24,087 bases of DNA from a virus. Taxonomy: Duplodnaviria > Heunggongvirae > Uroviricota > Caudoviricetes. The notes under the pieces are model-generated. The model was not told the DNA's origin. It did no database searches and saw nothing but the letters and a program-made list of their open reading frames with translations. Each line of letters begins with the position of its first letter. Position 1 is the stretch's first letter. Location of the stretch: IMG/VR virus record IMGVR_UViG_2648501223_000008. One strand, given 5' to 3'. A program made the position numbers and the translations under genes. Below are positions 4,655 through 12,946 of the stretch, in pieces.

Positions 4655-5557
4655 TGAGGTGTACTGGCAATAGCGGACACTACCATTTGTTCTTTTTTTA
4701 AGCAGCCATCTGATGATATTTTTCCCTGAAGGCTGCCGGGGAGATATTCCCCAGACGAGAGTGACGACGCTGACGATTGTAGAAAATCTCAATGTATTCC
4801 CGTATTACTGAGATGGCTTCATCCCGGTTATTAAAACGATAGTGGCCCAGGCTCTCATTTTTCAGCGTTCCCCAGAAGCTTTCCATCGGAGCGTTGTCGT
4901 AACAGTTACCTTTACGCGACATTGATGTTTTCAGACCAGACTGCTCCTGTATGACCCGGTAATCGTATGCGCAGTACTGTGAACCTCGATCAGAGTGGTG
5001 GATTAGCCCGGCAGGTGGGAGCTGGCTCCTGAGCGCCATAAACAGGGCTTTACCTGTCAGCTCTTTTGTCATGCGCTCTCCCATGGCGTAGCCGACAATT
5101 TCGCACGTATAAACATCTTTGATGCCAGCGAGGTACAACCATCCCTCCTGTGTGGCAACATACGTCAGGTCCGCCACCCAGACCTGATTTGGTGCTGTAG
5201 GAGCGAACGTCTGGTTCAGCAGATTTGGCGCAACTGGCAGATTGTGGTTCGGGTTCGTAGTCGCTCTGAACTTGCGTTTCTGCTTACAGCGTAGCCTCAG
5301 CTCCTTACGAAGACGTGCCAGTCGGTCACGACCAACGATGATGCCATTCTCTGCCAGCTCCGTCTGGAGCCGCCGGGTTCCATATGTTTCGCGAGTGCGG
5401 ATATGTGCCACCTTAATCTCCAGTTTTAGCCGCTTATCACTTTGTTTTCTGTCTGAGGGTTCATGCTGTACCCAGTTGTAATAACCGCTCCTGGATACAC
5501 CAAATACCTGACACATCGCTTCAATGGGAAATTGTTGTCGCCATTGTTCGATTAACG
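4655..5557 (-). mobile_element. IS600 (IS3 family), partial copy truncated by IS1
   Basis: terminal sequence tgaggtgtactggcaatagcggacac and orfB near-identical to the complete copy at 11683-12946; similarity stops at cgattaacg (5557), where IS1 begins. Confidence 0.85.
4698..5516 (-). CDS. IS600 OrfB transposase (DDE/RNase H fold)
   Basis: MCQVFGVSRSGYYNW...AAFREKYHQMAA, same length and offset as orfB of the complete copy, a few substitutions; the 344-aa track ORF 4698-5732 is a read-through into IS1. Confidence 0.85.
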   Translation of the reverse strand: MCQVFGVSRSGYYNWVQHEPSDRKQSDKRLKLEIKVAHIRTRETYGTRRLQTELAENGIIVGRDRLARLRKELRLRCKQKRKFRATTNPNHNLPVAPNLLNQTFAPTAPNQVWVADLTYVATQEGWLYLAGIKDVYTCEIVGYAMGERMTKELTGKALFMALRSQLPPAGLIHHSDRGSQYCAYDYRVIQEQSGLKTSMSRKGNCYDNAPMESFWGTLKNESLGHYRFNNRDEAISVIREYIEIFYNRQRRHSRLGNISPAAFREKYHQMAA

Positions 5558-5612
5558 GGTAATGCTGCCAACTTACTGATTTAGTGTATGATGGTGATTT
5601 TAAGGTGCTTGC

Positions 5613-5888
5613 GTGGCTTCCATTTCCATCAGATGTCCTTCCTGCTCCGCTACTGAAGGCGTGGTGCGTAACGGCAAAAGCACTGCCGGACATCAGCGCT
5701 ATCTCTGCTCTCATTGCCGTAAAACATGGCAACTACAGTTCACTTACACCGCCTCTCAGCCCGGTACGCACCAGAAAATCATTGATATGGCCATGAATGG
5801 CGTCGGATGTCGCGCCAGTGCACGCATTATGGGCGTTGGCCTCAACACGGTTTTACGTCACTTAAAAAACTCAGGCCGCAGTCGGTAA
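5613..5888 (+). CDS. insA: IS1 InsA
   Basis: identical 91-aa InsA. Confidence 0.95.
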
Positions 5889-6310
5889 CCTCGCGCATAC
5901 AACCGGGCAGTGATGTGATTGTCTGCGCTGAAATGGACGAACATTGGGGCTACGTCGGTGCTAAATCACGTCAGCGCTGGCTGTTTTACGCGTATGACAG
6001 GATACGGAGGACGGTTGTGGCGCACGTCTTCGGTGAACGCACTCTGGCCACACTGGAGCGTCTTCTGAGCCTGCTGTCGGCCTTTGAGGTCGTGGTATGG
6101 ATGACGGATGGCTGGCCGCTGTATGAATCACGCCTGAAGGGAAAGCTGCACGTTATCAGCAAGCGTTACACTCAGCGCATTGAGCGACATAATCTGAATC
6201 TGAGACAACATCTGGCAAGGCTGGGACGGAAGTCACTGTCGTTCTCAAAATCGGTGGAGCTGCATGACAAGGTCATCGGGCATTATCTGAACATAAAACA
6301 CTATCAGTAA
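5807..6310 (+). CDS. insB: IS1 InsB
   Basis: identical 167-aa InsB. Confidence 0.95.
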
Positions 6311-6370
6311 GTTGGAGTCATTACCAAGAAAGAGAAGGTAAAGAAGGTAAGTCCATACTGTCTCCACTAT

Positions 6371-6394
6371 AAAAAAACCGCCAATTTCTGGCGG
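6371..6394 (-). terminator. Rho-independent terminator of the lipoprotein gene
   Basis: minus strand ccgcca-gaaat-tggcgg followed by ttttttt (A7 at 6371-6377 on the plus strand); 9 bp after the stop codon. Confidence 0.65.
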
Positions 6395-6402
6395 CTTATA
6401 TA

Positions 6403-6885
6403 TTAATCATCATTAATATCTTTCATATTCAATTTGCAATTTTCGTAGGTCACTCCCGACTCGCCATTAACATTAACTCCAGCTCTGATATTCCCGTTTT
6501 CTTTTACATCTACAAAAAACTGGCCTCTTGGCATCTTGAACGCAAATGTAAAACCAACAGTATCTGAATCAAAATCATCATCTTTATATATTGGGATCAA
6601 AAATGTCATCGTCGCTGGTGATGCATTGTTTGCAAAATCAAATACACCTATACTTTTGCCGAATTCATAAGAAGCTTTTCTCAATATAATCGCACCGCTG
6701 GCAGAAGGGGATGGGCACGATATCCTCAGTTGTCTGAATCCATCTGTATCCAAGTCAACGTCATTATCTGCAGATGTTTTAACGTTACTAATAAATCGTG
6801 AAACAATCTCCTCATTTGTTAGTATTTTCGCCTGAGCACAGCAAGAGGTTAATATTGCAACCGTCATTAAAAATGGCTTTATCAC
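6403..6885 (-). CDS. Putative lipoprotein or secreted protein of unknown function
   Basis: 160 aa, GTG start with GGAG Shine-Dalgarno-like sequence; N-terminal signal peptide MIKPFLMTVAILTSCCAQA with possible lipobox LTSC; AT-rich relative to the flanking tail genes; sits where Mu-like phages carry baseplate genes. Confidence 0.55.
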   Translation of the reverse strand: MIKPFLMTVAILTSCCAQAKILTNEEIVSRFISNVKTSADNDVDLDTDGFRQLRISCPSPSASGAIILRKASYEFGKSIGVFDFANNASPATMTFLIPIYKDDDFDSDTVGFTFAFKMPRGQFFVDVKENGNIRAGVNVNGESGVTYENCKLNMKDINDD

Positions 6886-6952
6886 AAAACAAACTCCATT
6901 GTTAGCATGTTACGCGATAATTTTGCCTCATCTTTCACCACAAAAAAAGAAC

Positions 6953-11174: not shown

Positions 11175-11332
11175 GATTTTTTAGCCTTATCCTGTTTAAC
11201 ACGTACCACATCACCCGCCGCTATACGGCGGAACCAGTAGCTGCTTTCTTCCACATTTCGCCCTTCGGAAGGCAAAAGGTCTCCACGGGCAGGGTCAGGA
11301 ACCGACCGCCCTTTCAGGGGTTTCACAAACAT
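11171..11332 (-). CDS. Small phage protein (53 aa), translationally coupled to the sheath gene
   Basis: ORF MFVKPLKGRSVPDPARGDLLPSEGRNVEESSYWFRRIAAGDVVRVKQDKAKKS, below the 60-aa cutoff of the supplied track; its stop overlaps the sheath ATG. Confidence 0.45.
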   Translation of the reverse strand: MFVKPLKGRSVPDPARGDLLPSEGRNVEESSYWFRRIAAGDVVRVKQDKAKKS

Positions 11333-11341
11333 GAGGGACTC

Positions 11342-11682
11342 TTAATTCTGAGGGAAACGCATTTCCAGATGGTGCTCAATGTCACCATCCGGGCCAGTAC
11401 CAGGATCGATGTAATCCACATCAATACTCAGCAGGGATAAATCCGGCAGGGCATTCACGTCCTCTGCCTGTCGCGTGTCTTCTTCCGTGATTTCATACTT
11501 CGCCGTAAAATCAAACTGGTAATACAGTTCGTAACGGTTCAGATCCAGCAGGGTGCCACCGACATAAACAATCTCGCCCCCTTGCGGGTCCGGCATCCAT
11601 CCAAGCAGGGCTTTCCAGAGTTCTCTCCGGACATCATGAACGGCGTCATAGGCTGCCCACTGCCCTTTTTCATCACGCTCAT
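11342..11682 (-). pseudogene. Phage structural gene, 3' fragment truncated by IS600
   Basis: the reading frame begins at the IS600 end (11683); the first 5 residues of the track ORF (MPVHL) are encoded by IS600. Confidence 0.5.
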
Positions 11683-11725
11683 TGAGGTGTACTGGCAATA
11701 GCGGACACTACCATTTATTCTTTTT

Positions 11726-12544
11726 TTAAGCAGCCATCTGATGATATTTTTCCCTGAAGGCTGCCGGGGAGATATTCCCCAGACGAGAGTGACGACGCTG
11801 ACGATTGTAGAAAATCTCAATGTATTCCCGTATTACTGAGATGGCTTCATCCCGGTTATTAAAACGATAGTGGCTCAGGCTCTCATTTTTCAGCGTTCCC
11901 CAGAAGCTTTCCATCGGAGCGTTGTCGTAACAGTTACCTTTACGCGACATTGATGTTTTCAGACCAGACTGCTCCTGTATGACCCGGTAATCGTATGCGC
12001 AGTACTGTGAACCTCGATCAGAGTGGTGGATTAGCCCGGCAGGTGGGCGCTGGCTCCTGAGCGCCATAAACAGGGCTTTACCTGTCAGCTCTTTTGTCAT
12101 GCGCTCTCCCATGGCGTAGCCGACAATTTCGCACGTATAAACATCTTTGATGCCAGCGAGGTACAACCATCCCTCCTGTGTGGCAACATACGTCAGGTCC
12201 GCCACCCAGACCTGATTTGGTGCTGTAGGAGCGAACGTCTGGTTCAGCAGATTTGGCGCAACTGGCAGATTGTGGTTCGGGTTCGTAGTCGCTCTGAACT
12301 TGCGTTTCTGCTTACAGCGTAGCCTCAGCTCCTTACGAAGACGTGCCAGTCGGTCACGACCAACGATGATGCCATTCTCTGCCAGCTCCGTCTGGAGCCG
12401 CCGGGTTCCATATGTTTCGCGAGTGCGGATATGTGCCACCTTAATCTCCGGTTTTAGCCGCTCATCACTTTGTTTTCTGTCTGAGGGTTCATGCTGTACC
12501 CAGTTGTAATAACCGCTCCTGGATACACCAAATACCTGACACAT
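11726..12544 (-). CDS. IS600 OrfB transposase
   Basis: 272 aa, IS3-family DDE transposase. Confidence 0.9.
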   Translation of the reverse strand: MCQVFGVSRSGYYNWVQHEPSDRKQSDERLKPEIKVAHIRTRETYGTRRLQTELAENGIIVGRDRLARLRKELRLRCKQKRKFRATTNPNHNLPVAPNLLNQTFAPTAPNQVWVADLTYVATQEGWLYLAGIKDVYTCEIVGYAMGERMTKELTGKALFMALRSQRPPAGLIHHSDRGSQYCAYDYRVIQEQSGLKTSMSRKGNCYDNAPMESFWGTLKNESLSHYRFNNRDEAISVIREYIEIFYNRQRRHSRLGNISPAAFREKYHQMAA

Positions 12545-12579
12545 CGCTTCAATGGGAAATTGTTGTCGCCATTGTTCGA

Positions 12580-12882
12580 TTAACGCGTATTTTTCAGCGA
12601 CTCCTGTGCAAAATACGCTGTTGCTTTTTTTAATATATCTCGCTCAAGGCGAGCTTCATTTAACGCCTTACGCAGTTGCAGAATTTCAGATTCCAGTTCA
12701 GCCACCGTGCGGGAACCAGGAGTACCGAGCCCTTTTCTGGCGGCGGTAACCCATTGTCCTAAAGTGCCTTCAGGAAGAGATAATCGGGAAGCGCCTTCAC
12801 TGATCGAAAGTTGATTTTCAAGAACCGTTCTGACAGCTTCGGCTTTGAACTCTTTAGAGTAACGTTGGGTTTTTCTGCTCAT
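12580..12882 (-). CDS. IS600 OrfA (HTH/leucine-zipper transposase subunit)
   Basis: 100 aa MSRKTQRYSKEFKAEAVRTVLENQ...; slippery A7 near its 3' end. Confidence 0.9.
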   Translation of the reverse strand: MSRKTQRYSKEFKAEAVRTVLENQLSISEGASRLSLPEGTLGQWVTAARKGLGTPGSRTVAELESEILQLRKALNEARLERDILKKATAYFAQESLKNTR

Positions 12883-12946
12883 TATTAGCTCCTTCTGATG
12901 CCATTCTATTTCAGGAAGGAGTGTCCGTTAAACTCAGGCTACCTCA

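Follow-up and report, generated by a model that had tools for sequence, protein, structure and literature searches.

Successive IS events in an ipaH-carrying, phiP27-like prophage of Shigella flexneri 2a NCTC1

IS-mediated deletion between homologous copies is an accepted route of Shigella genome decay, and the main one (Hawkey et al., 2020; PMC7373316). Such recombination between direct IS copies, seen in Shigella (PMC7373316) and on its virulence plasmid (PMC5629016), leaves one hybrid IS with mismatched flanks. Degraded prophages are also known in the form of ipaH islands, the prophage remnants that carry chromosomal ipaH in S. flexneri 2a; islands II–V are present in all 2a-lineage genomes compared in the NCTC1 paper, which cites earlier work for the islands in S. 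flexneri 2a genomes (PMC4226921). At the locus described here ipaH likewise stands at the end of an IS-riddled, degraded prophage. Its IS-driven decay is ordinary and already known in kind, and is well resolved: the hybrid IS copies and mismatched flanks resemble those of published direct-IS deletions, whereas here a sister genome keeps the parental state, with all three duplications intact. No step-by-step junction history of this locus appeared in the literature searched.

The window (the whole stretch of DNA analysed, 24,087 nucleotides) matches the S. flexneri 2a NCTC1 chromosome (LM651928) at 100% identity over positions 2944–23594. The element is a phiP27-like lambdoid prophage, located at tRNA-Ser and carrying ipaH. 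Over 88% of its length, the tail module matches that of the Stx2e-converting phage phiP27 at 96.7% identity. A nearly intact relative with 99.6–99.9% identity, the prophage locus of E. coli FDAARGOS_944 (denoted L001), shows the further traits of this group, namely a ‘P27 family’ small terminase, an HK97-type head, a Q antiterminator, a tyrosine integrase and a contractile tail with Mu-like baseplate genes, with an att-like repeat of the tRNA-Ser region at L001 1867–1945. Membership of the phiP27-like group thus follows from identity to the phiP27 structural genes, a tyrosine integrase with a tRNA attachment site and the Q antiterminator. Unlike phiP27, the NCTC1 prophage has ipaH (547 aa, LRR and NEL domains) and a methyltransferase gene in place of stx, and is defective, without baseplate, fibre, head, packaging, lysis and early genes. 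The initial annotation had taken it for a Mu-like prophage. That label is wrong. A transposable prophage of the Mu type would have MuA/MuB transposition genes and lack a fixed attachment site. In L001 a tyrosine integrase adjoins tRNA-Ser, the early genes are lambdoid, Q and RusA are present, and the annotation lists no Mu A/B-like gene; Mu-type families in the prophage are confined to tail and baseplate genes.

L001 served as the reference. Four segments of the window align with it: 754–4656 (L001 2001–5901), 6326–10731 (14059–18464), 10721–11684 (19758–20721) and 14695–19517 (30541–35363). Because all four segments are 99.7–100% identical to L001, the blocks missing from the window are deletions and not mosaic differences. 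About 25 related genomes, picked by a look-up tool, were also examined; as they were compared without a phylogeny, the direction of change is taken from DNA content only. Our preferred reading, with a probability of roughly 0.88, is that IS events, one after another, have worn down a grounded, ipaH-carrying, phiP27-like prophage on its left and right sides. Lambdoid phages are mosaic, and the head region of one relative (CP026871) departs from L001 beyond L001 23314, so it could be argued that baseplate and fibre genes were never present and that simple IS insertions have had their duplications mutated away. This is very unlikely, however, since both flanks match L001 at 99.7–99.9% identity precisely as far as the IS ends, the left IS600 is itself cut short, a DNA-circularization gene is down to its first 31 nt, a DUF4376 gene is partial, and sheath, tube and tape measure without a baseplate make a non-viable design.

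Two IS600 copies in the same orientation, a partial one at 4655–5557 and a complete one at 11683–12946 (both minus strand), had been annotated initially, and self-BLAST places them correctly to the base. The match runs from 4655–5561 to 11683–12589 in direct orientation at 99.3% identity, but its final 4 bp (GGTA vs CGTA) fall within the end of an IS1 and align by chance, so that the true homology is 903 bp with five SNPs. The right copy is 1264 bp long, in line with the IS600 size of about 1.26 kb, and is bounded by TG...CA imperfect inverted repeats (TGAGGT...ACCTCA). It encodes orfA (100 aa, HTH) followed by orfB (272 aa, DDE/rve) on the minus strand, both matching NF033516 (IS3 family transposase), with a predicted frameshift fusion; a RefSeq copy annotated as IS600 and marked ‘programmed frameshift’ is 99.6% identical. 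The left copy keeps 903 bp from the IRR (orfB) end. Its final 361 bp, the orfA end, are gone, and a complete IS1 abuts IS600 base 903 exactly, as had been described. Having a single end, the left copy cannot transpose itself, and the test for a target-site duplication is moot for it. The IS1 (5558–6325, plus strand) is 768 bp long, with 23-bp inverted repeats and insA and insB. Another IS1, outside the interval 4655–12946 and cut by the window edge (1–753, minus strand), is inverted relative to it and forms a 753-nt inverted repeat with 5558–6310 (99.9% identity); no IS1 occurs at that site in the relatives whose loci reach it.

Every IS end in the window is flush with a new neighbour and lacks a duplication, which bears out the reported absence of target-site duplications at IS600 and IS1. 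The IS1 at 5558–6325 is flanked by CGATTAACG and AAGAAAGAG, with no 8–9-bp duplication; its neighbours, the IS600 interior and codon 10 of the DNA-circularization gene, are flush and unrelated. The right IS600 has CAT on one side and ATG on the other, without the 3-bp duplication of IS600. In CP026871 and LR213452 the same insertion is flanked by CAT/CAT and the adjoining phage genes are whole, and a further IS600 at the locus has GAG/GAG; the missing duplication in the window is therefore due to later rearrangement rather than to a different element. Other insertions at this locus in relatives also retain their duplications, which measure 9 bp for an IS1 in tnpC and for an IS4-like element in ipaH, and 8 bp for an IS1 in the integrase gene.

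On the left side, the 3' remnant of a tail-fibre-region gene (Pfam DUF4376; 4178–4654, minus strand) is cut by the IS600 remnant and is collinear with L001 to position 5901, inside a 207-aa gene. Beyond the IS1, the DNA-circularization (Mu N-like) gene is reduced to its first 31 nt (6326–6356, minus strand), window 6326 being L001 14059 in a gene that spans L001 12698–14089; the remainder of this gene falls inside the deletion. The junction of IS600 remnant and IS1 thus stands where L001 has 8,157 bp with baseplate and tail-fibre genes, and this block fits exactly between the two junctions, in agreement with the initial proposals that the missing duplications reflect recombination or deletion and that IS-mediated deletion explains the missing genes. 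IS600 would first have inserted into the DUF4376 gene. An IS1-anchored event would then have taken the final 361 bp of IS600 plus the 8,157 bp, and with them the tail-fibre, fibre-assembly, YmfQ, baseplate J, gp46 and baseplate V genes and nearly the whole DNA-circularization gene. IS1-mediated adjacent deletions are known from classical E. coli genetics, in which one IS1 is likewise kept, the deletion starts at its end and there is no duplication. The left event may have been such an intramolecular transposition or a recombination of two direct IS1 copies; at the NCTC1 locus the two give the same product and are indistinguishable, because both leave one flush IS1 without a duplication. We infer the order and mechanism of these events, as the sampled relatives and 5,426 complete E. 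coli genomes yielded no precursor, whether a DUF4376 gene interrupted by a complete IS600 or an otherwise whole IS600 with an IS1 inside it. CP054892 has independently lost this baseplate block by another IS1 event, so that decay of this prophage is recurrent.

Between the two IS600 copies lies the retained tail module (6403–11332, minus strand; L001 14059–20721, 99.9–100% identical), where window and L001 agree apart from an ISEc60 private to L001. Pfam matches support its genes, which comprise a 160-aa putative lipoprotein, tape measure (649 aa), tail assembly, tube, sheath (498 aa) and DUF2635. No annotation exists for the 160-aa ORF, but its lipobox (LTSC) makes ‘lipoprotein’ plausible. 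Next to the module, the C-terminal remnant of the tail-terminator gene (Pfam Phage_tail_terminator; 11342–11682, minus strand; L001 20379–20721) is cut by the right IS600. Each IS600 had been thought to truncate a phage gene, and this holds for DUF4376 on the left and for the tail-terminator gene on the 11682 side; the 12947 side is instead the interior of ISSfl3 tnpC.

This truncated ISSfl3 (IS66 family; 12947–14694, minus strand) retains 1,748 of about 2,734 bp, with tnpA and tnpB whole and tnpC ending after 216 codons; its identity to a copy that RefSeq annotates as ISSfl3 is 98.3%. Its outer end is flush with the start of a phage lysozyme gene (rrrD-like), of which the first 17 nt remain (14695–14711, minus strand). 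Here, at window 14695 (L001 30541; gene at L001 30060–30557), homology to L001 begins again; relative to L001 the window lacks 9.8 kb here, with genes for head, packaging and lysis. Alignment with other genomes recovered the ancestral order of this side in CP026871, where an ISSfl3 carrying a second IS600 is followed by head genes and the tail-terminator IS600. There ISSfl3 has an 8-bp duplication (L001 30541–30548), the window copy having lost one end. IS600 copy A, in ISSfl3 tnpC, has GAG on both sides, with lysozyme, Rz, HNH and terminase genes beyond; copy B, in the tail-terminator gene, has CAT on both sides, with head-closure, connector and capsid genes kept. Both lie on the same strand of the record.

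The comparison shows how the right side arose. ISSfl3 entered the lysozyme gene at its start and duplicated 8 bp, IS600 copy A inserted into ISSfl3 tnpC (GAG), and copy B into the tail-terminator gene in the same orientation (CAT). Homologous recombination between A and B would then have removed the approximately 11.7 kb between them, with the remainder of tnpC and the genes for lysis, terminase, portal, capsid and connector, to give a single hybrid IS600 with one flank from each parent. The right IS600 of the window is most simply a product of this recombination. A common junction (the IS600 IRL end followed by GAGTGTCATC), identical to the IRL junction of copy A, occurs in CP044152, CP055138, CP054913, CP026788, CP012735, CP044155, CP034931, JANXIW01, CAJFAR01 and CM001474. 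In NCTC1 the junction lies 166 bp deeper in tnpC, a position that was found in no record other than LM651928 and a single SRA-run contig ending there; a last step in NCTC1 was the loss of these 166 bp, flush with the IS600 IRL end.

A single-step origin of the large right-hand deletion, in which IS600 transposase at the tail-terminator copy deleted adjacent DNA as far as tnpC and no second IS600 took part, is improbable. The endpoint is indeed flush with the IRL end, and flush losses of 11 bp in CP026810 and 166 bp in NCTC1 suggest a deletion-generating end, but an IS600 with its own GAG duplication at the exact tnpC base of the common junction in CP026871 would then be a coincidence. It also counts against this reading that elements of the IS3 family transpose by copy-out/paste-in and do not belong to the classic sources of adjacent deletions. 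Recombination between A and B is preferred on parsimony and because CP026871 carries copy A, since sequence alone does not separate the two; the 11-bp and 166-bp losses need an extra mechanism in addition. The initial suggestion of recombination or deletion at the right IS600 is supported by the partner copy in CP026871, although that third IS600, inside ISSfl3, had gone unrecognised. IS-mediated deletion is real, but the IS600 pair in the window did not itself cause either loss, the left one being anchored on IS1 and the right one involving the third IS600. LR213452 and CP026772 lack IS600 copy A and about 9 kb of one flank; on the opposite side the loss ends only 2 bp past the IS end. This resembles the IEE-promoted excision of IS3-family elements with flanking deletion (PMC9397093), a resemblance only.

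IS-dense regions are hard to assemble, and hardly any assembly but that of NCTC1 shows the 166-bp difference, which might suggest that IS repeats were collapsed or mis-joined. Such artefacts are hardly credible here. The junctions 4654/4655, 5557/5558, 6325/6326 and 11682/11683 recur in at least 11 other independently assembled genome records, the contig from an independent SRA run stops exactly at the private junction, and the NCTC1 assembly was built from approximately 250x PacBio data with an Illumina check (PMC4226921).

The two IS600 copies in the window form a 903-bp direct repeat that is still recombinationally active. It had been forecast that they could delete the tail segment, and this has happened in CP026810, where one full IS600 stands between the DUF4376 remnant and tnpC and the entire tail module is gone. 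This IS600 has the left-copy allele at position 35 and, past position 903, sequence that only the complete copy could give, so the loss is most simply a recombination between the two IS600 copies. SNP mosaics of left and right copies across strains suggest gene conversion. The tail segment was also lost from CP026765 and UGYS01, by a longer, second IS1-anchored deletion from the same IS1 end. The 8.3 kb from 4655 to 12946 might also be viewed as a compound transposon, mobilisable by the right-copy transposase, as its outer ends form a legitimate IRR/IRL pair and orfA and orfB of the right copy are intact. We give this very little weight: a segment that had moved as a unit should be flanked by a duplication or occur at another locus, but 4655–12946 has no duplication around it and the tail module occupies one chromosomal locus in every context returned.

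Endpoints at the locus are nested, being flush with the IS600 IRL end at 0, 11 and 166 bp in tnpC and with the IS1 right end at L001 14059 and window 14422; the loss of copy A with one flank, to 2 bp past the IS end, adds a further case from one lineage. It is possible, though we hold it only tentatively, that these IS ends are repeated transposase-driven generators of deletions and not passive homology. If the deletions depend on transposase or an excision factor, the locus would be a natural time series for comparing rates of recA-driven and transposase-driven prophage decay in Shigella. It shows cleanly, and at base resolution, how an effector gene brought by a phage (ipaH) becomes locked into Shigella, with tail, head, lysis and early genes stripped by IS insertions, recombination between IS copies and IS-anchored deletions, and with intermediates kept in sister strains. 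Its use lies in teaching and annotation (the tail genes are remnants, the 12947 flank is IS66-family and the phage is phiP27-like).

Outside 4655–12946, the early genes were removed by another deletion, the third, which measures 9.3 kb. It is marked by a 9-bp IS1 IRL stump (GGTAATGCT; 19518–19526, plus strand; 13 bp counting the shared GCCA), and in CAJFAR01 and CM001474 a complete IS1 begins directly after window position 19517.

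The stretch comes from the chromosome of Shigella flexneri 2a NCTC1 (LM651928.1), which is 100% identical to window positions 2944-23594 and was assembled from ~250x PacBio data with Illumina reads as a check (PMC4226921). The tail genes that remain share 96.7% identity with those of phage phiP27 and only 77% with those of SfV and SfII. A near-intact relative, a 44-kb prophage lying between zinT and tRNA-Ser/mtfA in E. coli FDAARGOS_944 (L001), is 99.6-100% identical to the window where the two align. The gene content of L001, which includes a tyrosine integrase, Q, RusA and a small terminase of the P27 family, identifies a lambdoid, phiP27-like phage whose baseplate genes are of Mu type, and not the Mu-like transposable prophage assumed in the initial annotation. 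IS-mediated decay is standard in Shigella (PMC7373316; PMC5629016), and ipaH islands were already given as known features in the NCTC1 paper (PMC4226921). A literature search found no paper on these particular junctions, whose main value is as a well-documented worked example of a phenomenon already known in this genus.

Window positions 754-4656 correspond to L001 2001-5901, 6326-10731 to 14059-18464, 10721-11684 to 19758-20721 (where L001 has a private ISEc60), 14695-19517 to 30541-35363, and 19527-21904 to 44713-47080. Three L001 blocks are absent. The first, 5902-14058 (8,157 bp), holds the genes for tail fibre, fibre assembly, YmfQ, baseplate J, gp46, baseplate V, a baseplate assembly protein and the DNA circularization protein. 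The second, 20722-30540 (9,819 bp), holds the tail-terminator N-terminus, connector, capsid, protease, portal, terminase, HNH, Rz and lysozyme genes, and the third, 35364-44712 (9,349 bp), holds early genes. Four phage tRNA genes (Gly-TCC, Thr-TGT, Lys-TTT and one with a CAT anticodon) lie between Q and the holin gene at 15219-15528; the last is Met according to ARAGORN, and its L001 counterpart is Ile in RefSeq. Past tRNA-Asn the window (21905-24087) diverges from L001, with a truncated second integrase of 249 aa at 22578-23327 and an IS3-type transposase fragment that reaches off the window end.

Self-comparison of the window and reading of its junctions bore out the coordinates and sequence features first reported for the IS elements, namely an IS600 direct repeat, an IS1, and no target-site duplications. 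The repeat aligns 4655-5561 with 11683-12589 at 99.3% identity; the 907-bp length given by BLAST was dropped, as the final 4 bp (904-907) match the IS1 terminus only by chance and the true homology is 903 bp. The right IS600 (11683-12946) is 1264 bp long, ends TGAGGT...ACCTCA, and encodes on the minus strand orfA (100 aa) and orfB (272 aa), each matching an IS3-family transposase model; a RefSeq copy annotated as IS600 is 99.6% identical to it. The left IS600 (4655-5557) consists of 903 bp from the orfB end, or IRR, and nothing beyond. As had been noted, its orfA end, or IRL, is replaced by an IS1 starting at 5558 (5558-6325), which is complete at 768 bp and has 23-bp inverted repeats. The right IS600 has CAT on one side and ATG on the other, and the IS1 flanks are CGATTAACG and AAGAAAGAG, so that neither element has a duplication. 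Missing duplications at the three IS elements are informative, because simple insertions in the same locus of relatives show them: an IS1 in tnpC has a 9-bp duplication (window 13097-13105), an IS1 in the integrase gene has one of 8 bp (window 20327-20334), and an IS4-like element in ipaH has one of 9 bp. Another IS1 (1-753), cut by the window edge and in the opposite orientation, forms an inverted pair with 5558-6310, and the two elements enclose the methyltransferase, ipaH and DUF4376-remnant segment. In relatives whose loci extend to its site, att/zinT sequence continues without IS1; the NCTC1 copy may be a simple insertion or an inversion breakpoint.

On the left, the IS600 remnant and, after it, the IS1 stand exactly in the place of L001 5902-14058, and the absence of baseplate and tail-fibre genes is explained by this deletion, as had been proposed. 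The IS600 IRR end adjoins L001 5901, inside the DUF4376 gene, and the IS1 right end adjoins L001 14059, 31 nt into the circularization gene. Since each new joint falls exactly at an IS1 end, one of them inside IS600, the deletion was anchored on IS1 and not on the IS600 pair. The earlier proposal of IS-mediated deletion rather than simple insertion is supported, with a correction for the left loss, which did not run through the IS600 repeats. Either an adjacent deletion by IS1 or recombination of two direct IS1 copies would fit the sequence, which cannot distinguish between them. The same structure is present in at least 11 other genome records, wherever the fetched locus covers those positions, and is therefore an old, shared event; assembly artefacts, which had been raised as an alternative, do not account for it. 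Two synthetic 300-bp precursor junctions (IS600 IRL end plus L001 5902 onward; IS1 right end plus IS600 position 904 onward) had no match at ≥80% query coverage in 5,426 complete E. coli genomes, and a precursor of the left structure was not found in any fetched locus. One candidate for an IS600::IS1 intermediate, on a rearranged draft contig with plasmid genes as well (L014, UDWV01), was rejected: its extra IS600 piece (654-1264) overlaps the retained 1-903 and therefore derives from another copy.

Related genomes show that IS1-anchored loss recurs at this locus. At its right end the same IS1 meets window 14422, in tnpA of ISSfl3, in CP026765 and UGYS01, where window 6326-14421 and with it the whole tail module have been lost. 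In CP054892 (L042, window-orientation positions 10021-10796) the DUF4376 gene has no IS600, and an inverted IS1 links L001 6317 to L001 14616, with loss of L001 6318-14615. This baseplate and fibre loss is independent, because each lineage retains DNA missing in the other; here another lineage has undergone parallel decay of this prophage with no IS600 involved. The prophage family has taken a different decay course in other lineages: in CP026811 (L035) and CP026834 (L032) an IS600 joins the DUF968 gene and the C-terminal portion of baseplate J. These loci still have their early genes and tail fibres but have lost Q and the genes for lysis, along with the head and the greater part of the tail.

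On its 12947 side the right IS600 adjoins no phage gene: positions 12947-14694 belong to ISSfl3 (IS66 family), of which 1,748 bp are present, comprising tnpA, tnpB and tnpC codons 1-216, with the outer end flush with L001 30541. An apparent 10-bp extension of ISSfl3 past 14694 was discarded as a chance likeness to the flank of one reference copy, all copies diverging after ...GCGCTTAC. Less decayed loci in CP026871 display the component insertions. One is ISSfl3, whose simple insertion duplicated 8 bp of target, L001 30541-30548 (L059); its tnpC in turn contains an IS600, copy A, flanked by GAG at either end, and past this come the lysozyme, Rz, HNH and terminase genes. A further IS600, copy B, has entered the tail-terminator gene by simple insertion, with CAT repeated at either side, and this locus (L004) still has its head-closure, connector and capsid genes. 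The two copies are ~11.7 kb apart on the same strand. The common junction in relatives, IS600 IRL abutting GAGTGTCATC, is exactly the IRL junction of copy A, and would thus most simply be the product of A x B IS600 recombination. The right loss involved a third IS600, copy A; both it and the ISSfl3 that carries it had been missed. Derivation of the CP044152-type junction from an LR213452-type locus was ruled out, because 2 bp of tnpC (GA) persist in the former and are absent from the latter; this led to the model with two IS600 copies, which the CP026871 locus (L059) then confirmed.

Further changes have affected this junction. NCTC1 has lost another 166 bp of tnpC directly at the IRL end; this junction was seen only in LM651928 and in one SRA-run contig ending exactly there, and CP026810 has an 11-bp loss at the same end. 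In LR213452 (L007 2336/2337) and CP026772 (L031) copy A has been lost with everything up to L001 22321, the CAT duplication of copy B being kept; ~9 kb went on one side of copy A, with an endpoint 2 bp past the IS end. This loss appears to resemble excision-with-flank deletions reported for IS3-family elements with IEE. CP182555 (L002) and CP178302 (L023) have one additional A at the IRL/tnpC junction, where the IS600 end meets GAGTGTC; it is a genuine 1-bp variant or else a long-read homopolymer error common to both. On invasion-type plasmids, too, copies of ISSfl3 are cut in tnpC at other positions, one at L025 position 3496 with IS600 adjoining (L024) and another with IS21 adjoining (L026).

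It had also been suggested that the direct repeats could delete the tail segment, and CP026810 provides such a case, with one full-length IS600 between the DUF4376 remnant and tnpC, and IS1 and the entire tail module absent. This IS600 has G at position 35, the left-copy allele in every strain examined, and has sequence past position 903, which the left remnant cannot supply; its alleles 1023G and 1096G also occur in the right copies of CP182555 and CP178302. An IS600 of this kind is what recombination between the 903-bp repeats should yield, and that would be its simplest origin. The alleles at positions 193, 366, 661, 768 and 781 occur in different combinations on left and right copies from strain to strain, which suggests gene conversion between the repeats. 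The contigs that carry the 160-aa tail-module protein are 5-10 kb long in 2,138 of 2,783 collection blocks, a size that fits short-read assemblies breaking at IS1 and IS600 around the 5.4-kb tail module; these contig statistics suggest that the IS-bracketed structure is very widespread.

The 9.3-kb early-region loss is marked by a 9-bp stump of the IS1 IRL end, GGTAATGCT, at 19518-19526 (junction 19517/19527), or 13 bp counting the shared GCCA. In CAJFAR01 and CM001474 a complete IS1 begins exactly after window 19517, and in CP026810 an IS1 in the opposite orientation lies between window 19370 and L001 44702. The stump and the 4-bp microhomology suggest an illegitimate deletion that took out the IS1 itself. 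On the dinI/ypdA side (L037, L039, L041, L043), each genome has a second, paralogous ipaH-methyltransferase-tail-fibre-assembly remnant beside dinI, carrying identical 89-aa and 222-aa proteins. Such paralogous ipaH remnants could be a substrate for recombination between the two loci.
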